A stretch of DNA of 64,000 nucleotides from an uncultured Desulfurococcales archaeon (GTDB lineage: Archaea; Thermoproteota; Thermoprotei_A; EX4484-217-1): assembly GCA_964526225.1 (NCBI GenBank), contig CAZGLL010000001.1, forward strand, positions 58,903 to 122,902, given 5' to 3'. This document shows positions 1,977 through 39,190 of this stretch, piece by piece. Position 1 is the first letter of the stretch. The number at the start of each line of letters is the position of its first letter. The notes below the pieces were generated by a model. The model searched no databases, was not told the origin of the DNA, and saw only the letters and a program-made list of their open reading frames with translations. The position numbers and the translations under genes were made by a program.

Positions 1977-2817
1977 TCTCTAGTTTTCTAACTATTTTCT
2001 CAGCTATTTTTAAAATTTCCTTAGCGCCTTCTTCATGAGAATATACTTTTACGTACGGTTCTCCTTTATCATTAGCTTCAGCTATTTTCGAGCTTATAGG
2101 TATTCGCCCTAGCAATTCCACGTTTAGGCTTTTAGCTAGGAATTCTCCACCGCCTTTACCAAAAATGTATTCTATATGACCACATTTCGGACATTTATAG
2201 TAACTCATATTCTCAATTATGCCTAGTACCGGTAAATTGAGTTTTTTTGCGAATCCAGCTGCTCTTCTAACATCAAGTAAAGATACTTCAGATGGAACCG
2301 TAACGAGAATTATTCCTGAAGGATTAGGCATTTCCTGAGCTACACTTAAAGGCTCGTCTCCGGTTCCTGGTGGTAAGTCTACGATAAGATAGTCGAGTTC
2401 TCCCCAGTTAACCTCTCCTAGAAGTTGTCTTATTGCTGATACCTTCAAAGGACCTCTCCATATAACCGGAGTTTCATCATCTGGAAGCATAAAGTCTAGC
2501 GAAACAACTTTAATACCATCCTCTGAAACAACAGGTTCTATACCGCGCGGACTTGCTAGTAATGAAGCACCTCTTAAACCTAGTATTTTAGGTATATCAG
2601 GTCCGTGGAAATCAGCATCAAGTATTCCCACTTTCTTACCCAACATTGCTAATGCTACTGCTAAATTTGCGGCAACAAAGCTTTTACCTACGCCGCCCTT
2701 ACCGCTTCCAATAAGTATCTTATGCCTTATCTTCTTGAATCTTCTAATGATTAATTCCTTCTGTTTTTCTATAAAACCAGGCATCCTAATGTTTCTCATT
2801 CTTTGAGAAAAAACCAT
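1969..2817 (-). CDS. Mrp/NBP35 (ApbC) family Fe-S cluster carrier ATPase
   Basis: Deviant Walker A GSGKGGVGKS, C-terminal CPKCG motif, about 280 aa. Confidence 0.85.
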   Translation of the reverse strand: MVFSQRMRNIRMPGFIEKQKELIIRRFKKIRHKILIGSGKGGVGKSFVAANLAVALAMLGKKVGILDADFHGPDIPKILGLRGASLLASPRGIEPVVSEDGIKVVSLDFMLPDDETPVIWRGPLKVSAIRQLLGEVNWGELDYLIVDLPPGTGDEPLSVAQEMPNPSGIILVTVPSEVSLLDVRRAAGFAKKLNLPVLGIIENMSYYKCPKCGHIEYIFGKGGGEFLAKSLNVELLGRIPISSKIAEANDKGEPYVKVYSHEEGAKEILKIAEKIVRKLEKS

Positions 2818-2858
2818 TTGGGATTCCTCTTAACATTCTTTAACAATGTTAAAAACAA

Positions 2859-4658
2859 CTAGTATATAAATGCTATGAGAAAAGAAACTAAAAAGGAAGA
2901 AATATGTAAAACAAAGAATAAAGGAACAATAAGTCTAAGATCTTCAGCTATATTTTCAAGAAAACGGAAACCTTGATAACCTAAGGTTTTTGTTAAAATA
3001 TCTATCCTCCGAAACACTATTTTAGATTCTGTAAGCGATGACAATGCTTTTTTAACAGCTGTTATTGTTGTTTTAATAATTTCATTTCTGCAGATGCTAG
3101 CACCAACGGGAACATAGGTCTTTCCTCCTAAAGAACCCGTTTTCTCATGATTATCTGTTGTAACTATTGTTGCAAACGCAATATTCTTATGTAACTTCTT
3201 AATTTCGCTTTCAACTTCATCTTTAAAGTCTTTAGTAGCATTGTTGCCGTCATACACTACTATAATTGAAAGCTTTCCATGGTGGTCGAAAACTATAGCG
3301 TTAACGATATTAGAGCATAAATCTATACAATCGTTTAGTCTGGGATCTTCGATTTCGCTTAAACCTATTTTAAGAATGTCCTTATTCTTCGTATCTTTCC
3401 TTTGTATATTAGAAACATTATCCTTAAATATCTTTATATACGATTTACATTCTTTCTCAATGTTTCTTTCAACCTCTGGTTTAGCATTATGCGCTTCGAT
3501 TACTAGTAAATCTTCAAAACCAGCTTTTTTAGCAATATTTTCTAAGACTTCATTTAGATGCGAAGGCAAATCATCTATTCCATTTGTTAAATTGTACAGT
3601 ACTACTAAAGGCACTTTATCTAGTTCTATGAAGTACATGCAGTATTGTTTATCGCATAGTTTTTCGAAACCATAGATTGTATCGATATCTAAGATTCTAC
3701 GATGATTTTCTCTTAAAGCGTTTCGAATTTGAGAAATTACGTATTTCAAATACTTCACTGATGGAATATCTTTCTCATGGGTTGTTGCAGCATGGAATAT
3801 TAGAACCGGAATATTACCATAGATTTCCTTGAGTACCTTACGAAGCTCCGAAATAACTTTAGAACTTCCAGTATCCCTGAAAGGCCCAGCATGTATTGAT
3901 GTTAATGCTATTATCCCCCTTACCTTATCATAAAAAACATCGTATATTATGAAGAGCTTTACCCAGACGCTATCATCATCAGAAATACTCTCCAATATTT
4001 TCTCGATAGGTTTACTGTCTTCAGCAAACCATAGCCGTAAAAAGGCGTTTGATAAAGCTAATGTTAACTTGCCTGTTTTAGAATATTTTCTCAGAAGTAC
4101 AAAGTATACCTCTCCAAAAGAAGCTGAAATAAAAGGTGTTAAAATAGTAAATGACATTGTCGCAAGGGAATGTTCAAACATAGGTAATACTAAAGCGTAA
4201 TATGTGATGGGAGGCAAGATAGACTCAAACATTGCTTTTACGAAATCACATTCTGGCCTCCTCAATACATAGTGTAGAAAAGCATAACCACCATAGGTAA
4301 TTAGATAAAGCTTTTTAAAAGTAAACATCATAACCACTAGCTCAAAAACAAACACATGTAACAAAATAAAAATCAACATTACCAAAACTCTTCTCACATA
4401 ATTTTTAAATCTGAGTACACTATTTCTTAGCAGAAAAGCTGTTATAGCATTCGAGATTATTATGGGTAGAATAACTGCTATTGAAAGGGTAGTTAGTGAG
4501 AAATACTGTGTTTTAGAGATAATAATCAATATTAAAATGAATAGGTAAAGTACAATCAATGTTGAGAGTTTAGGTGATGTGAAAACAAATCTCGAGTAGT
4601 ACTTAGCCACATATTTTTCCATGTCCATTTTATCTAAAATCCTCAAACATGTTTGCAA
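2859..4658 (-). CDS. Membrane protein with a C-terminal soluble domain (possibly the archaeal DUF2070 family)
   Basis: N-terminal approx. 200 aa are highly hydrophobic multi-TM, followed by a roughly 400-aa soluble region. The length (599 aa) fits DUF2070, but the family assignment is from memory only. Confidence 0.4.
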   Translation of the reverse strand: MQTCLRILDKMDMEKYVAKYYSRFVFTSPKLSTLIVLYLFILILIIISKTQYFSLTTLSIAVILPIIISNAITAFLLRNSVLRFKNYVRRVLVMLIFILLHVFVFELVVMMFTFKKLYLITYGGYAFLHYVLRRPECDFVKAMFESILPPITYYALVLPMFEHSLATMSFTILTPFISASFGEVYFVLLRKYSKTGKLTLALSNAFLRLWFAEDSKPIEKILESISDDDSVWVKLFIIYDVFYDKVRGIIALTSIHAGPFRDTGSSKVISELRKVLKEIYGNIPVLIFHAATTHEKDIPSVKYLKYVISQIRNALRENHRRILDIDTIYGFEKLCDKQYCMYFIELDKVPLVVLYNLTNGIDDLPSHLNEVLENIAKKAGFEDLLVIEAHNAKPEVERNIEKECKSYIKIFKDNVSNIQRKDTKNKDILKIGLSEIEDPRLNDCIDLCSNIVNAIVFDHHGKLSIIVVYDGNNATKDFKDEVESEIKKLHKNIAFATIVTTDNHEKTGSLGGKTYVPVGASICRNEIIKTTITAVKKALSSLTESKIVFRRIDILTKTLGYQGFRFLENIAEDLRLIVPLFFVLHISSFLVSFLIAFIY

Positions 4659-31770: not shown

Positions 31771-32564
31771 TCAAATGAGCCCGAGCAGTATGAATATGTA
31801 TACTTCAGCTAGTGCTAGAATTGTTGATAAAATAATTGATTTTGATGCTGTTTCAACATTAAACCCATAGACATAAGCCAATACAGCATTAGCTGTTGCT
31901 GGCGGCATTATTGATTCAAGCATTACTTGTTTAAAGATTAAGGTTTCCCCAACTAAAACTATACCAAGAGTAAAGTGCATAATAGGTGAAATAATGTGTC
32001 TCCAAAATATGATAAATAATATTGGAAATTCTACCAAGACCTTTAAGCTCTTAATAATGGGTAAGCCTAGACCGACGATTACAGCACTCAAGTAAACGCC
32101 TACTGTACTTAAAACATTTGGAATATCTCATAATACTGAAGGAGCTAGTTCATTAAGATTAAAGCGGCTAAACACTATTCCCACAATTCCGGCGTAAATG
32201 ATTATGTTTTTACCTATCTTCCTTAAGGATAAAGCCAGTATTTGTGCTTTCATCCATGAAAGAAAAGCATGGATGAAAGCACATCAGCTATCACATAATG
32301 TATTAGAATCATAGTATATGCATAAACAATTACTGGAACAATGTTTCTGTAAAGTGAAAAAGCAAGAGGTATAGGTAGGAAAGCACAATTCTGAAATATT
32401 ACCGATAAGACGGTAGAACCGATGAGACTTGTATCGTTTTTCACTATATGCTTATCAATGTAGATAGTTAAAAGCAGTGATAATGAAATGTACGCTATAA
32501 TTATTAGCTCTATGCTTACATGTTCAAGAGAAAACTTTGTTTTAGCAAGACTATTAAATATCAT
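31771..32564 (-). pseudogene. Disrupted AEC-family (auxin-efflux-carrier / malate-permease-like) transporter gene
   Basis: Two ORF fragments (32250..32564 N-terminal, 31771..32091 C-terminal) are both AEC-like membrane segments. My translation of the gap shows a frameshift at about 32250-32260 and an in-frame TGA at about 32126. The break coincides with a 15-bp perfect palindrome. Confidence 0.55.

Positions 32565-33716: not shown

Positions 33717-33742
<26 letters not shown>
33455..33742 (+). CDS. Small winged-helix protein with a C-terminal Cys cluster
   Basis: 95 aa. wHTH-like segment followed by CTETVCTKCPLRKACP. Confidence 0.4.
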
Positions 33743-34946
<1,204 letters not shown>

Positions 34947-35038: not shown

Positions 35039-35464
35039 ATGATTATGAATATGAGAAAGTGTAGGAAATCATTAAAGGTAAAAAAGGAAATTCTATATGC
35101 CATATTATGTGAAGCGAAACGAAACTTAATTGAAATATGTGGTTTACTCTTTGGTACGATATCTAAAGGAAGTTTTAATGTTTTAAGCTATGCTTTAATA
35201 AGGAATGTTGAAAATTCCTCTGTAAGCTTCAAAATGGATCCTAGGGAGATGTTTAACGAAATAATCAAGCACAGAAATAAGTCTATGGACATTGTTGGTC
35301 TATTTCATTCACATATGACATCGGTAGCTCCTTCGTCAAAGGATCTTTATTACATGAGATTATGGAATGTCCCATGGCTTATAGTTGATAGGAATGGGAA
35401 CTTTTCAGCCTATCTAATAGAAAATGGTGAGCTATGTTTGGTTGAAACTATTGTTGTTGAGTAG
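35039..35464 (+). CDS. JAB1/MPN/Mov34 (JAMM) metalloprotease
   Basis: JAMM motif E...HSHMTSVAPSSKD. 141 aa. Confidence 0.75.
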   Translation: MIMNMRKCRKSLKVKKEILYAILCEAKRNLIEICGLLFGTISKGSFNVLSYALIRNVENSSVSFKMDPREMFNEIIKHRNKSMDIVGLFHSHMTSVAPSSKDLYYMRLWNVPWLIVDRNGNFSAYLIENGELCLVETIVVE

Positions 35465-36089
35465 TTTTAGGTCTAGGAACTCTTCTTCCATTACCTAAAA
35501 CCCAAAATTCTCCATCACTTCTTCTTTCAAGCTTCCATATAGGTGTTTCATGTTTAACCTTTTCAAGAACTTCTCTTGCAATATCAAATGCTGTTTTTCT
35601 ATCGATAGCTGAAACAAATATGTAAACTGTTGACTCCTTAGGTTTAAGCCTAGATACTTTATGGTATACTCTAACATCTATAACATTAGGTTTCCTAGAA
35701 TACTCCTCGGCTATTTCCTTAAGCTTAGCGTTAGCAAAAGGTTTATAGGCATCATATGATAACTCATAAACTTCAACGTTGCCTTCAACTAATCCTTTAA
35801 CGAAACCTATGAAAACAACAACAGCTCCGCTCCTGATAAATTCAGGGTTCTTCTTCATTTCCTCAATAATGCCATCGACACTAATATCTTCTTCAATTAT
35901 GAAGCCTTCAGGAAATCCTCCAGAAGCAGGAGGAAACAGAAACACTTCATCATTATTCTTAAGTTCCCTATTTTGATCAGCTGGTTCACCATTTACAAGA
36001 ACAATTATAGGTTCTTCAGGTTCTGTTTCATCAATGTAGTTTGCTATTTGAGGATACCTCTTTACCAGCGTTTCTATGAGATCTTTCAC
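35448..36089 (-). CDS. MoaD-MoaE fusion (molybdopterin synthase small and large subunits in one polypeptide)
   Basis: N-terminal beta-grasp ending in FPPASGG (MoaD-like Gly-Gly) is directly followed by a MoaE-like domain (VVVFIGFV...VYHKVSRL...ETPIWKLE). Confidence 0.7.
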   Translation of the reverse strand: MKDLIETLVKRYPQIANYIDETEPEEPIIVLVNGEPADQNRELKNNDEVFLFPPASGGFPEGFIIEEDISVDGIIEEMKKNPEFIRSGAVVVFIGFVKGLVEGNVEVYELSYDAYKPFANAKLKEIAEEYSRKPNVIDVRVYHKVSRLKPKESTVYIFVSAIDRKTAFDIAREVLEKVKHETPIWKLERRSDGEFWVLGNGRRVPRPKTTQQQ

Positions 36090-36184
36090 CTTAGCTCCTT
36101 CAGTAAGTTCGATAGATATTCTTTCTGAACCTACAATGTCTCTATATATGGCAAATAATCTAACATTAACTTTAATACTTATTC

Positions 36185-36400
36185 ACCTCTCGTACCGTAT
36201 CTAGAGGTCTGACCCTTATGGTGGGTCTTCATCCCTCATGGGCTTTCTCTACCCCCGCTTTTCGGAAGCCTGGCTTCACAGCCTTAGCCGCCCGCATCGC
36301 TCCACCAGACTCCCTTGAGCGAAGGTAGAGAGGTTTGGGGAGCTTCACCCTTATCTCTCGACTGGTCATCGCTCGTTCACTCCCCACATCCCACATCTCT
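36185..36400 (-). ncRNA. GC-rich, highly self-complementary non-coding element of unknown identity (candidate structured RNA)
   Basis: About 58% GC island in a roughly 35% GC genome, with no ORF of 60 aa or more in any frame. On the reverse strand there are multiple nested helices, including a GGCU-GUGA-AGCC GNRA hairpin, GACCC-N7-GGGUC, CGCUC-N13-GAGCG and GGGGAG...CUCCCC. The strand call rests on the GNRA loop. Confidence 0.4.
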
Positions 36401-36576
36401 TTCTAGCGTAAAACAAATATAAATTTTACGTAAATATATATAGTGGTGTACTGTTGTGGAGCAATATGTTTTCCACGCCAAGATAAGCAAATGTAGCGGG
36501 AGGAAGCTGTGTATCTATATTCCTAGGGAGATTGAAGATAGGTTAAAACATTTACATGGTCAAGAGGTGGTAGTAG

Positions 36577-37716
36577 TTGTCATTAAACCTGATGCCTAAG
36601 ATAATAGCAGATAAGGAAACACAAGAACAGTTCATGTACATAACAATTAATGGTAGACTAATACCAAAAAGTAATGAAAACTATATGAAATTATGTTTAC
36701 TAGCATACCGTTTCAAACAGGCAGTTAAGCATGGGATAAACCTTGTATTGAGTGATGTACCTCAAAAGCAAGCATACAAGGAATTAGCGAAAATACTACC
36801 AAGTAGCATCTATGGCGAAACGGCATATAAGTATGCAAAGTTATTAGTGGAAGGAGCAAGAGAACAAGTCAATAATGAAGTAATTGTTAATAGAATAAGC
36901 ACAAAGAGGAAATGGATAGCATCAAGAGGGGGAGTAACATGGAGAGGAAACCTAAACATAAAATTGATATCCACAGATAAGGTGCTAGTAAGATATTATG
37001 ATGGTGAGTGGTTAGAATTTAAGGTAAGGTTTGGAGAAAAGTATCTACCGTTAGTTAATGAGTTAATAGAACTCGCTAATCAGAAGAGAACAAGTTATGG
37101 TGCATCTATAAGCTTTAAGAACGGTAAACCATATATTCACGTAGAGCTTCCTTTATGGTTATACCTGAAACACCTTTTAGCACCTAAACCTAACGGTTAT
37201 GGATTGATAGCTGGATTTGATATTAATAGTGATAGGCTTAATGCAGTGATTATTGATAGAGAATGTGAGATTATTGCTTTAAGAACCTTCTGGTATAGTG
37301 AGGCAATATCTCATGGTTTTCCTAGGAATAAAGCTAAATGGATAAGACTTAACGCCTTAGCCAAAGCTTTGAAGTGGTGTAGAAGGATAGGAGTAGACTA
37401 CGTGGTGTTTGAGAACTTGACAAAAATAAAAACTAGGAGGTTTACAAGCATCCCAAATGCTAACCGTAAGATAGCTAAATTCCCTAAGAAACAGCTCCTT
37501 AAAAATAGTATTATTAAAGCACTTAAACTTAGATTCACAGTTATACTGGTAAATCCTAGGGGGACGAGCAGTAGTATAGCACATAAGCAGATTATGAGAG
37601 AAAAAGGATTAGACAAACATGCAACAAGCGCTTACATAATAGCTTATAGAGGATTAAAGACGCTTAAAGAACAAGAACCCTCAATAACCCCCTCAACAAC
37701 ATCCACCATAAACTAA
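36577..37716 (+). CDS. TnpB-like RuvC-fold nuclease (IS200/IS605 OrfB-like) lacking the zinc finger
   Basis: RuvC-I GFDINSDRLNAV, RuvC-II VVFENL, TnpB-like NPRGTSS segment with no CxxC...CxxC, RuvC-III-like DKHATSAYIIAYRGL. Starts on TTG in the ORF track. Confidence 0.65.
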   Translation: MSLNLMPKIIADKETQEQFMYITINGRLIPKSNENYMKLCLLAYRFKQAVKHGINLVLSDVPQKQAYKELAKILPSSIYGETAYKYAKLLVEGAREQVNNEVIVNRISTKRKWIASRGGVTWRGNLNIKLISTDKVLVRYYDGEWLEFKVRFGEKYLPLVNELIELANQKRTSYGASISFKNGKPYIHVELPLWLYLKHLLAPKPNGYGLIAGFDINSDRLNAVIIDRECEIIALRTFWYSEAISHGFPRNKAKWIRLNALAKALKWCRRIGVDYVVFENLTKIKTRRFTSIPNANRKIAKFPKKQLLKNSIIKALKLRFTVILVNPRGTSSSIAHKQIMREKGLDKHATSAYIIAYRGLKTLKEQEPSITPSTTSTIN

Positions 37717-37783
37717 TATTCAATACTAAGAATTCACACTTGTTCTAGAATATGTGTTGCTTTATATTTTGTCTATGTTTAAG

Positions 37784-39190
37784 CTAAACATCCATGTACA
37801 TATAGAATTCGGCGGGAGAAGGAATTGCTTCTATGAATTTTACTTCTCTCCTTTTTAATTCGATGTAATCATCTAAAGCCGCTTTGGGAAATATTGGGTG
37901 AAGATATTCTCTATCGGACTCAAGCTCATCAAGAGCTTCCCAGAGTGTTCGTGGAAGTTCTTTGATTCCTAACCTTTTTCTCTCTTCCTCGCTCATATGG
38001 TAAATGTTCTTATCAACGGGATCTTCGGGCTCTATTTTCTTCTTAATTCCATCAAGCCCTGCTGCGAGTATTGCAGCAAATGCTAAGTATGGGTTAGCTG
38101 ATGGATCAGGTGGTCTATACTCTATTCTTTTTTCACTCTTAACACCCCTATGGTAGGCAGGCACTCTTATTGCAGCGCTTCTATTACCTCTACTCCAAGC
38201 AAGATATACTGGAGCCTCATAGCCTGGGATAAGCCTCTTATAGCTATTAGTTGTTGGGGAAACTATTGCTGAGAGAGATCTTGCGTGTTCTATAAGTCCC
38301 CCTATGAAGTATCTACCTAGCTGGCTTAATTCCGCGTATTCATCGTTTTCATCATAAAAGAGGTTCCTACCGCTAGTATCCCAAAGGCTTACATGAACAT
38401 GCATTCCTGAACCATTATCCCCATAGATCGGCTTAGGCATAAATGAAGCATACATACCATATTTTGCAGCAACATTTTTTACAACATATTTTAGGGTTTG
38501 AACATTATCTGCAGTTCTAACTAAACCTCCATATTTGAAATCTATTTCGCATTGACCTGAAGAAGCAACTTCATGGTGATGTGCTTCTACTTCGACATTG
38601 AAGTATTTTGTTAAAATTACTGATGCTTCGCTTCTAATATTGTATACTATATCGTAGGGGTCTGGAGTGTAATATCCTTCCTTTACACGTATGAAAAGAG
38701 GGTTAACAGAAGTACTTCTTTCTTTAGAAACTATTGAAAGGGATTGTTTTACTCCCGGATTTTCAAAGTCTAGCTCTACTTTATCGAATATGAAGAATTC
38801 TACTTCAGACCCCCAAAGACTAATGTAACCTTGGTCTTTGGCGTATTTCTCGGCTTTTTCAGCTATATATCTTGGATCTTTTTCTAGCCTGCCCCTATTG
38901 AACCCCCAATAAACCTTACCTATGAATCTAGCCGTAGACTTTTTCCACGGTATTATTGCAAAAGTTTCTGGATCAGGCTTAAGAACTAAATCACTTTCAT
39001 CTATTGTTGAAAATCCCTTTATTGAGCTACCATCTAATTTACCAAAACCTTTTATCGTTATTTCATTTGAAAGCTTACTTGTTGGAAACGTTATAGAGTG
39101 GAGTTTACCAAGTAGCGAGGTGAAGTGGACTTCTATCCATTCTATGTTTTTCTCCTTTACCATCTCCACTATTTCGCTATGGTTCATCAT
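37784..39190 (-). CDS. glnA: Glutamine synthetase, type I
   Basis: 468 aa with GS beta-grasp and catalytic-domain motifs (MHVHVSLW, NSYKRL). Confidence 0.9.
   Translation of the reverse strand: MMNHSEIVEMVKEKNIEWIEVHFTSLLGKLHSITFPTSKLSNEITIKGFGKLDGSSIKGFSTIDESDLVLKPDPETFAIIPWKKSTARFIGKVYWGFNRGRLEKDPRYIAEKAEKYAKDQGYISLWGSEVEFFIFDKVELDFENPGVKQSLSIVSKERSTSVNPLFIRVKEGYYTPDPYDIVYNIRSEASVILTKYFNVEVEAHHHEVASSGQCEIDFKYGGLVRTADNVQTLKYVVKNVAAKYGMYASFMPKPIYGDNGSGMHVHVSLWDTSGRNLFYDENDEYAELSQLGRYFIGGLIEHARSLSAIVSPTTNSYKRLIPGYEAPVYLAWSRGNRSAAIRVPAYHRGVKSEKRIEYRPPDPSANPYLAFAAILAAGLDGIKKKIEPEDPVDKNIYHMSEEERKRLGIKELPRTLWEALDELESDREYLHPIFPKAALDDYIELKRREVKFIEAIPSPAEFYMYMDV

Follow-up and report, generated by a model that had tools for sequence, protein, structure and literature searches.

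A JAMM1-type metalloprotease gene convergent with a moaD-moaE fusion gene in an uncultured Desulfurococcales archaeon: a probable new case of a known maturation system

Within the 64,000-nucleotide (nt) stretch of archaeal DNA analyzed here (hereafter, the window), two genes converge: a plus-strand gene for a JAMM/MPN+ metalloprotease of the archaeal JAMM1 type (positions 35039 to 35464) and a minus-strand moaD-moaE fusion gene (35448 to 36176). The longest reading frame of the JAMM gene encodes 141 amino acids (aa), with candidate ATG starts at 35039, 35045, or 35051, and gene callers predict lengths of 137 to 139 aa for its relatives. The product matches the Pfam families Prok-JAB (E = 2.8e-12; 47 bits, cutoff 25) and JAB (E = 5.2e-08; 33.1 bits, cutoff 22.5), and its zinc-binding motif, read from the sequence as HSHMTSVAPSSKD (35306 to 35344), contains H90, H92, S99, and D102. 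Alignment with relatives places the upstream catalytic glutamate of the JAMM motif at Glu32 (codon 35132 to 35134), in an E-I-C-G segment that aligns with the EVCG segment of Pyrococcus furiosus JAMM1 (PfJAMM1); E32, H90, H92, S99, and D102 are invariant in the alignment with 10 relatives. The spacer of the motif (H-x-H-x6-S-x2-D) is one residue shorter than that of PfJAMM1 (the general motif being E...H-x-H-x7-S-x2-D), a minor variant that is common to the whole JAMM clade. PfJAMM1 (PDB 5LD9/5LDA), which has reportedly been studied with SAMP2, is the closest solved homolog: the two proteins align nearly end to end (residues 12 to 136 onto 4 to 126, ~40% identity, E = 1.5e-21), are of similar size, and have the same catalytic residues. 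The NCBIfam desampylase equivalog model NF041370 gives the window protein 37.1 bits (E = 2.6e-09), below its cutoff of 130; as judged by this model, the protein is related to HvJAMM1 of Haloferax volcanii yet is no equivalog of it.

On the minus strand, the Pfam domains ThiS (41 bits) and MoaE (88.6 bits, E = 4e-25) lie in a single frame. ORF callers begin this gene too short, at an internal GTG (36089), upstream of which the frame remains open and encodes the first strands of the MoaD domain (IKVNVRLFAIYRDIVGSERISIELTEGAK) back to an ATT codon at 36176 to 36174, for a total of 242 codons plus a stop codon. Only with this N-terminal extension does the archaeal MoaD model TIGR01687 (moaD_arch; 74.2 bits, cutoff 49.5) match over positions 1 to 88 of 88, and residues 2 to 27 appear as confident beta-grasp strands in the AlphaFold model of the fusion. 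The ATT start is kept in four related loci (L001, L008, L009, and L010; loci are denoted by L numbers throughout), and its conservation there is matched by that of a Shine-Dalgarno-like GGTGA motif, which lies 6 nt upstream of the ATT in the window (36183 to 36187, minus strand) and at a spacing of 6 to 7 nt across all five loci. Because the true start is an ATT, the fusion has been called at 213, 204, or 152 aa within the clade, such that the MoaD half is missing or shortened in databases. Literature searches on AUU initiation in archaea and on SSO2105 yielded nothing useful.

The MoaD/SAMP1-like beta-grasp domain (residues 1 to 87; 35916 to 36176, minus strand), recognized by Pfam ThiS and TIGR01687, ends in ...FPPASGG. 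Foldseek aligned it with H. volcanii SAMP1 (4HRO and 3PO0) and with MoaD (6JBZ_B and 1FM0_D) at target-normalized TM-scores of 0.80 to 0.88, and it matches P. furiosus MoaD (1VJK) at E = 1.4e-12. The terminal di-glycine of this domain, Gly86-Gly87 (GGA GGA, 35916 to 35921), is internal to the fusion, and cleavage is predicted to occur after Gly87. A junction of the form PP[AVLIFPS][SA]GG is present in 34 of the 43 fused homologs, across the Thermoproteota; in the structural model of the window protein, residues 86 to 90, at the SGGFP junction, have a pLDDT of <50, which we read as predicted flexibility. The MoaE catalytic-subunit domain (residues 88 to 242 plus the stop codon; 35448 to 35915, minus strand; Pfam MoaE) starts with FPEGFIIEED, ~4 residues past the Gly-Gly, and provides the best PDB sequence match of the fusion (the MoaE domain of Mycobacterium tuberculosis MoaX, 9JBD; E = 2.8e-17) as well as Foldseek matches to 2QIE and 1FM0_E with TM-scores of ~0.8. 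The lysines of “VKHE” and “WKLE,” which we take to be the equivalents of the Escherichia coli MoaE active-site residues K119 and K126, are invariant in 21 homologs, and both align with the K-x6-WK segment of Staphylococcus aureus MoaE and M. tuberculosis MoaX. The first-pass annotation of this DNA had described a 141-aa JAMM protease with exactly this motif, a MoaD-MoaE polypeptide with an internal Gly-Gly (...FPPASGG-FPEG...), and a 17-bp overlap of the two genes on opposite strands, all of which hold; its placement of the 5′ end of the fusion at the GTG (36089), on the other hand, was wrong and cut off 87 nt.

The overlap of the two 3′ ends (35448 to 35464, from the ORF coordinates) also measures 17 bp in L001 but shrinks to 11 bp in L008 and is absent from L004; convergent overlaps are frequent in compact archaeal genomes, and the overlap itself has no significance by any measure taken here. 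Since the JAMM and moaD-moaE genes converge, they form no operon and have no common promoter. The convergent pair is kept down to ~40% identity in the JAMM protein and ~50% in the fusion, and persists while the adjoining thrC drops out or breaks up and the opposite flank takes in an IS element. It is kept within one clade only, and because that clade also retains the order of glnA, lplA, and radical-SAM and TPR genes, the adjacency may be inherited synteny.

Among 43 fused loci from species-representative genomes, only 2 have a JAMM gene of this type within 6 kb and 1 more has a weak JAB-like ORF, making 3 of 43 fused versus 0 of 37 unfused loci with a JAMM nearby, counts that are too low and too dependent on phylogeny to be given weight. 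Conversely, no gene for MoaD, MoaE, or an E1 lies near any of 70 other JAMM relatives. An iteratively built profile of the clade's JAMM proteins detected no further JAMM in 80 MoaE-containing loci, and a motif search of the loci added only L013, from an unrelated Desulfurococcales genome, in which a JAB-like ORF, a MoaD-MoaE fusion, and a ThiF gene are consecutive on one strand (the JAB-like ORF being weak, with a Pfam E value of 4.9e-4, below the cutoff, and an hhalign probability of 36%). Pyrobaculum ORFs that converge with fusions (L023 and L027) were considered as JAMM candidates and rejected: they gave weak profile matches only, with no Pfam match and an hhalign probability of 0.4%.

Neither a phmmer search of the 64-kb window with an approximate E. 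coli MoeB probe (E values up to 10) nor a search for Rossmann motifs detected an E1-like gene in it, whereas the same MoeB probe matched ThiF-type ORFs in L013, L019, L034, L052, and L055, that of L013 being confirmed by Pfam ThiF (E = 1.1e-69). (The Pfam summary of 71 window ORFs covers the top 25 families and, alone, cannot exclude ThiF.) For the SAMP/urmylation-type ubiquitin-like system that the first-pass annotation offered as a second possibility, and that these data neither favor nor oppose, the MoaD domain scores 57.1 bits against the NCBIfam SAMP1 model NF041918, slightly short of its cutoff of 60, and the window contains no stand-alone ORF of at least 60 aa that ends in GG. Small ORFs with RRGG or RHGG at their C termini, located immediately upstream of distant JAMM genes (L100, L101, and L126), were considered as ubiquitin-like (Ubl) tails and dropped as probably spurious because they are arginine rich and of low complexity.

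Upstream of the fusion gene lies an IS-like insertion of ~1.5 kb (36206 to 37743) with TCTAGA on either side (36200 to 36205 and 37744 to 37749), which is missing from the same site in L001, L008, L009, and L094. It carries a TnpB-like ORF (36577 to 37716, plus strand) and a conserved structured RNA (36200 to 36392, minus strand). Neither the whole window scanned against Rfam at gathering thresholds nor positions 36080 to 37800 scanned at E values up to 10 yielded a credible family for the GC-rich block, and no tRNA genes were found. On the far side of the insertion is a TATA-like element (AAAATATAAAGC; 37759 to 37770, minus strand), which, from the position of the motif in relatives, is the putative ancestral promoter of moaD-moaE: in the insertion-free loci L001 and L094 it lies ~45 nt upstream of the ATT, whereas here it is 1.5 kb away. 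The IS-borne RNA gene faces outward, has a TATA-like motif of its own, and reads toward moaD-moaE, with no T-run seen between the two; its promoter could replace the one that was lost. We regard the insertion as context, outside the JAMM/MoaDE system.

Several characterized systems bear on how the two products may interact. The fusion resembles M. tuberculosis MoaX (Rv3323c), likewise a MoaD-MoaE fusion and molybdopterin (MPT) synthase, and we know of no protease identified so far as acting on MoaX. According to a later article, MoaX must be cut to work as MPT synthase (Narrandes 2015, in PMC8832034), and the same article reports that in Deinococcus radiodurans the protease DR0402 (DRJAMM) cleaves a natural MoaD-MoaE fusion, DR2607, activating MPT synthase, and that cPMP accumulates in a DR0402 mutant (Yang 2018, in PMC8832034). 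The D. radiodurans system is like the present one in combining a natural fusion that has an internal MoaD C-terminal Gly with a small stand-alone JAMM/MPN+ protease, but it is bacterial, its genes are probably not neighbors (their locus tags are far apart), whereas the archaeal genes converge and overlap, and cleavage in the archaeon is only predicted. From H. volcanii, HvJAMM1 cuts a linear SAMP1-MoaE fusion exactly after the C-terminal Gly, cleavage is abolished when the GG is deleted, and DMSO respiration with this fusion occurs only when jamm1 is present; the enzyme combines deconjugation with cleavage of the linear fusion (PMC4443979). Here, the likeness is that of an archaeal JAMM1-type enzyme and of a MoaD fold close to SAMP1 (4HRO, TM-score 0.85); the difference is that samp1 and moaE are separate genes in Haloferax, that the fusion was engineered, and that the natural substrate is the isopeptide-linked SAMP1-MoaE conjugate. 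PfJAMM1 and HvJAMM1 have also been described as cleaving SAMP1/2 (PMC8832034).

For the Crenarchaeota, a published table (Cao 2015, S1 Table; PMC4443979) already catalogs Ubl-MoaE fusions (from Pyrobaculum, Sulfolobus, Ignisphaera, Acidilobus, and others), each entered together with a JAMM protein from that genome, and a 2024 paper (Fusion/fission families in Archaea; PMC11237513) reports the fusion family from 18 of 35 Thermoproteales and from 5 of 30 Desulfurococcales. These published lists record co-occurrence within genomes, whereas the window presents adjacency of the genes; our literature search found no biochemical test of any crenarchaeal fusion/JAMM pair. A further archaeal JAMM enzyme, Rpn11 of Caldiarchaeum subterraneum, both matures a ubiquitin precursor and deconjugates and reportedly belongs to a system with a full ubiquitin operon (PMC6043591), of which there is none in the window.

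On these grounds, we consider it likely that the JAMM protein processes the fusion after its Gly-Gly and thereby activates the synthase. [quoted passage not shown] The JAMM1-type zinc metalloprotease of 137 to 141 aa most likely recognizes the beta-grasp domain together with the extended ...PPASGG tail and would hydrolyze the peptide bond after Gly87, releasing mature MoaD and MoaE, which would then assemble into an active (MoaD-MoaE)2 synthase. If the organism conjugates MoaD/SAMP-type modifiers, the same protease could also strip them from lysines, as do HvJAMM1 and PfJAMM1. We infer, then, that the precursor is cut, that the cut falls at this site and is necessary, and that this particular JAMM protein makes it. 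The proposal that the JAMM protein is a candidate processing enzyme for the fusion had been made in the first-pass annotation and is supported by the JAMM1 homology, by the intact junction that is modeled as flexible, and by published precedent. The idea is right but not new, because such processing has been published for DR0402/DR2607 and for HvJAMM1, and crenarchaeal fusions and JAMM proteins had already been listed together.

Three other explanations were weighed against maturation of the fusion by its neighbor. The JAMM protein might be a general isopeptidase (a desampylase or deurmylase) or have another housekeeping role, its position next to moaD-moaE being inherited and some other protease maturing the fusion. 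Convergent genes that are not cotranscribed, the wider synteny kept across the same clade, the predominance of fused loci without a nearby JAMM gene and of JAMM relatives without a nearby moaD-moaE, and the SAMP1/2 cleavage described for PfJAMM1 and HvJAMM1 (PMC8832034) would all be expected of such a protein. However, the two roles are not exclusive, as HvJAMM1 performs both (PMC4443979), and nearly all crenarchaeal genomes in the published tables appear with both a JAMM protein and a Ubl-MoaE fusion. For such fusions, moreover, no other candidate protease is known, and the pair stays intact beside a decaying thrC. We judge this alternative to be unlikely, though not negligible. It is also conceivable that the partner of the JAMM protein is the divergently transcribed pyridoxal phosphate (PLP) enzyme on its other side (33717 to 34946, minus strand), in the manner of Mec+/CysO/CysM or HcyD/HcyS/MetY, where amino-acid synthesis draws on a sulfur-carrier protein trimmed by a JAMM protease. 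Clusters of JAMM, ThiS/MoaD, and PLP-enzyme genes are known in bacteria, a gap of 92 bp separates the JAMM gene here from a PALP-family gene upstream of it on the opposite strand, and the PALP/JAMM arrangement recurs in L001, L008, and L094 to L098. This PLP enzyme nevertheless passes the threonine synthase equivalog model TIGR00260 (293 bits, cutoff 167) and is not of the CysM/MetY type, the window offers no free-standing carrier (no small ORF ending in GG), and thrC is absent beside the pair in L004 to L007 and L103 to L104 and in pieces in L099, L102, and L108, where the pair persists. A functional link between thrC and the JAMM gene was rejected on the basis of the TIGR00260 identity and the dispensability of thrC next to the pair in relatives, and we regard this explanation as scarcely credible.

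The remaining explanation is that in this genome the fusion is a decaying or silent gene, leaving a pairing without current function. A full-length MoaD frame that lacks an ATG, GTG, or TTG start and a 1.5-kb insertion that parts the gene from the TATA-like element found ~45 nt upstream in relatives would both be consistent with decay, which we nonetheless hold to be very unlikely: the ATT and GGTGA are kept in five lineages at 67 to 100% identity, four of them without the insertion, and the 242-codon frame is intact. Over the 29 N-terminal codons, synonymous and nonsynonymous differences within the close group are roughly balanced (for example, 6 versus 3 between the window and L008; 2 versus 2 between the window and L001), but the synonymous share is greater than expected from random substitution, and the outward-facing IS-borne RNA gene could supply a promoter.

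Taking maturation by the JAMM protein as the preferred reading, one might go further and propose that MoaD-MoaE is controlled at three levels (a weak AUU start behind a strong GGTGA, obligatory cleavage by JAMM1, and overlapping convergent transcripts) and that the SAMP1-like MoaD also acts as a modifier that the same JAMM protein removes. We find this extended version distinctly improbable; if true, the locus would represent a minimal crenarchaeal module in which two genes suffice for ubiquitin-like maturation and deconjugation. As it stands, the locus is an ordinary new case of a known maturation system in an uncultured heat-loving archaeon, and the current picture of molybdenum-cofactor synthesis and ubiquitin-like systems is unchanged by it. 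What it adds is a natural archaeal case of a mechanism for which the only demonstrations so far come from an engineered Haloferax fusion and a bacterial one, and, with substrate and protease adjoining in a hyperthermophile, what would be a convenient thermostable pair for structural and biochemical study of how a JAMM enzyme recognizes a linear Ubl-protein junction.

The window (G+C content of ~35%) carries a + strand JAMM ORF (35039–35464, 141 aa) whose Pfam matches to Prok-JAB and JAB both exceed the thresholds. The encoded protein contains the zinc-binding motif HSHMTSVAPSSKD, with the upstream Glu lying within the segment EICG, and Glu32, His90, His92, Ser99, and Asp102 are invariant in an alignment of ten relatives with identities down to 39%. 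Among solved structures, the nearest is that of Pyrococcus furiosus JAMM1 (5LD9/5LDA; E = 1.5e-21, near-complete alignment coverage), from which the window protein differs by a His-x-His-to-Ser spacing one residue shorter. As the first-pass annotation had reported, this ORF converges with a − strand moaD–moaE fusion (3′ end at 35448), which it overlaps by 17 bp, and the MoaD sequence ...FPPASGG runs into MoaE within one polypeptide (ThiS and MoaE domains in a single frame; junction ...FPPASGG-FPEG...; Gly86-Gly87 codons at 35916–35921, − strand).

The upper bound of the interval initially assigned to the pair (35039–36089) does not hold as the 5′ end of the fusion. The GTG at 36089, chosen by the ORF tool and by public gene callers, would delete the first two beta-grasp strands. 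Upstream of it, the frame is open back to an ATT at 36176 and codes for IKVNVRLFAIYRDIVGSERISIELTEGAK. A GGTGA lies 6 to 7 nt before this ATT in the window (36174–36187, − strand) and in the homologous loci L001 (5914), L008 (5890), L009 (6004), and L010 (6007), five lineages with protein identities of 67 to 100%, and more distant homologues have ATG at the equivalent position. The internal GTG is not conserved (GTA in L008 and L009, ATA in L010). Across the 29 N-terminal codons, synonymous and nonsynonymous differences number 6 versus 3 (window/L008) and 2 versus 2 (window/L001), roughly balanced within a close group; the synonymous share exceeds that expected from random substitution. A match to TIGR01687 (moaD_arch) over its full length (74 bits; cut-off, 49.5) is obtained solely with the extended protein, and residues 2 to 9 and 21 to 27 are confident strands in the AlphaFold model of that protein. 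On these grounds, moaD–moaE appears to start at ATT 36176 and to occupy 35448–36176 (− strand, 242 codons), which accounts for the shortened fusions (213, 204, or 152 aa) in public gene calls from the window's clade. A literature search turned up no reports of archaeal initiation at AUU.

The AlphaFold model (mean pLDDT of 85) consists of a beta-grasp domain (residues 1 to 85), a junction with pLDDT below 50 (residues 86 to 90), and an alpha/beta MoaE domain (residues 92 to 236), with only about four residues separating the Gly-Gly from the first MoaE strand. In Foldseek searches, the N-terminal domain matches Haloferax volcanii SAMP1 (4HRO, 3PO0) and MoaD (6JBZ_B, 1FM0_D), and the C-terminal domain matches MoaE structures (2QIE, 1FM0_E, 9JBD) with target-normalised TM-scores of ~0.8. 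The best solved sequence match is the MoaE domain of Mycobacterium tuberculosis MoaX (9JBD, E = 2.8e-17), likewise a MoaD–MoaE fusion. Both lysines of the MoaE K-x6-WK segment are invariant among homologues.

Immediately upstream lies an IS-like insertion of 1.5 kb (36206–37743), flanked on both sides by TCTAGA (36200–36205 and 37744–37749) and absent from the same glnA/moaD–moaE spacer in four related loci (L001, L008, L009, and L094). Because it sits between a TATA-like element (37759–37770) and the moaD–moaE ribosome-binding site, the gene has probably been separated from its own promoter. Contigs carrying both proteins come from three assemblies. The insertion encodes a divergent TnpB-like protein (36577–37716, + strand, 379 aa) with weak NCBIfam matches and a precomputed Pfam assignment to PF27229 (SSO2105_N); its homologues in Thermoproteota and Sulfolobales exceed 200 in number, and no CxxC zinc-ribbon motif was seen in its 379 aa. 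On the opposite strand is a G+C-rich structured RNA of ~190 nt (36200–36392, −), which folds well on that strand only (z = −3.8 versus −0.5 on the + strand), has a conserved TATA-like motif ahead of it, and contains a long hairpin with compensatory changes. Among five sequences, seven base pairs of the RNA vary in a compensatory manner. A covariance model recovers it in the same divergent position beside homologous ORFs in L090, L174, L091, L175, L099, and L102, with weak matches in Saccharolobus islandicus (L089) and Acidianus hospitalis (L177); in all of these and in the window, protein and RNA are paired. The RNA has no Rfam match. It is transcribed away from the TnpB-like ORF, and its 3′ end falls at the element border, towards moaD–moaE and 24 nt from the ATT; in this arrangement it resembles an omega-RNA scaffold encoded on the strand opposite its nuclease gene.

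Uncultured Thermoprotei/Desulfurococcales genomes are the closest relatives of the window. Scanning species-representative genomes retrieved 80 loci, from Pyrobaculum, Thermoproteus, Ignisphaera, Desulfurococcaceae, Sulfolobales, Acidilobaceae, Thermofilaceae, and a few Gemmatimonadota. MoaD and MoaE are fused in one frame in 43 (34 of them with a PPxSGG junction), adjacent but separate in 33, and represented by moaE only in 4. Only L009 and L010, the closest two of the 80, have a window-type JAMM within 6 kb. In an unrelated Desulfurococcales locus (L013, 915–2824), a weak JAB-like ORF (HTHPLGNRPSLLD), a MoaD–MoaE fusion, and a ThiF-family E1 gene are consecutive on the same strand, a more operon-like form of the same functional set. 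No E1-like gene was picked up within the window by a MoeB probe that did detect ThiF-type ORFs at five other loci.

In the reverse direction, a scan that used the JAMM protein as query and included metagenomes yielded the convergent pair in ten loci (JAMM identity of at least ~41%) and no MoaD, MoaE, E1, or PLP neighbours at the other 70. Adjacency by itself carries little weight, because the clade in which the pair persists also shows synteny of glnA, lplA, radical-SAM, and TPR genes. JAMM might instead be a general deconjugating enzyme beside the fusion by accident. We consider this reading rather unlikely, and it is compatible with, rather than opposed to, JAMM maturing the fusion. The neighbouring thrC is absent in L004 to L007 and L103 to L104 and fragmented in L099, L102, and L108, all with JAMM and fusion intact, which slightly favours retention of the pair. 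In the last three, metagenome relatives, the threonine synthase gene is in three or four frame fragments (2677–3914, 2660–3905, and 389–1459, respectively) and could be a pseudogene, intein-split, or an assembly error. Elsewhere, window 31771–32564 (−) is occupied by a pair of short ORFs (106 and 104 aa) in place of the one 308-aa Mem_trans (auxin-efflux-type) gene of relatives such as L008, possibly a disrupted gene; downstream of the syntenic block, the radical-SAM gene contains an intein in L006 (10454–12714; Intein_splicing and LAGLIDADG matches), not in L004 or L005, and is similarly enlarged in L007 (10454–12196).

Placing JAMM in a thrC-linked sulfur-carrier pathway is scarcely credible, because the neighbouring PLP enzyme scores as a thrC equivalog (293 bits), a search within the window found no free carrier ORF, and the pair can do without thrC next to it. 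That the moaD–moaE locus is decaying seems very doubtful, given that the fusion frame is intact and that both the ATT and the ribosome-binding site are conserved. Released MoaD may act in SAMP-type conjugation; with the SAMP1 model, the MoaD domain reaches 57.1 bits (cut-off, 60).

[quoted passage not shown] Both in vitro and in vivo, HvJAMM1 cuts a linear SAMP1–MoaE fusion precisely after its SAMP1 C-terminal Gly, deletion of the GG prevents cleavage, and the fusion restores DMSO respiration only with jamm1 present (Cao et al. 2015, PMC4443979). The same study places natural archaeal Ubl–MoaE fusions in Crenarchaeota only, and its S1 table gives fusion and JAMM protein per genome, including Pyrobaculum, Sulfolobus, Ignisphaera, and Pyrolobus. 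As summarised in PMC8832034, Deinococcus DR0402 cuts the natural fusion DR2607, and the mutant accumulates cPMP (Yang et al. 2018); in a 2024 survey, the fusion is again recorded for Thermoproteales and Desulfurococcales, with a citation for the cleavage requirement (PMC11237513). The proposal of JAMM as candidate processing enzyme is therefore sound, its mechanism matching the HvJAMM1 and DR0402 precedents, and the window JAMM is probably the maturase of the window MoaD–MoaE fusion. Given these three sources, the cleavage after Gly-Gly put forward in the first-pass annotation is the published mechanism: it is already established elsewhere, and the window locus is a further member of a published system.
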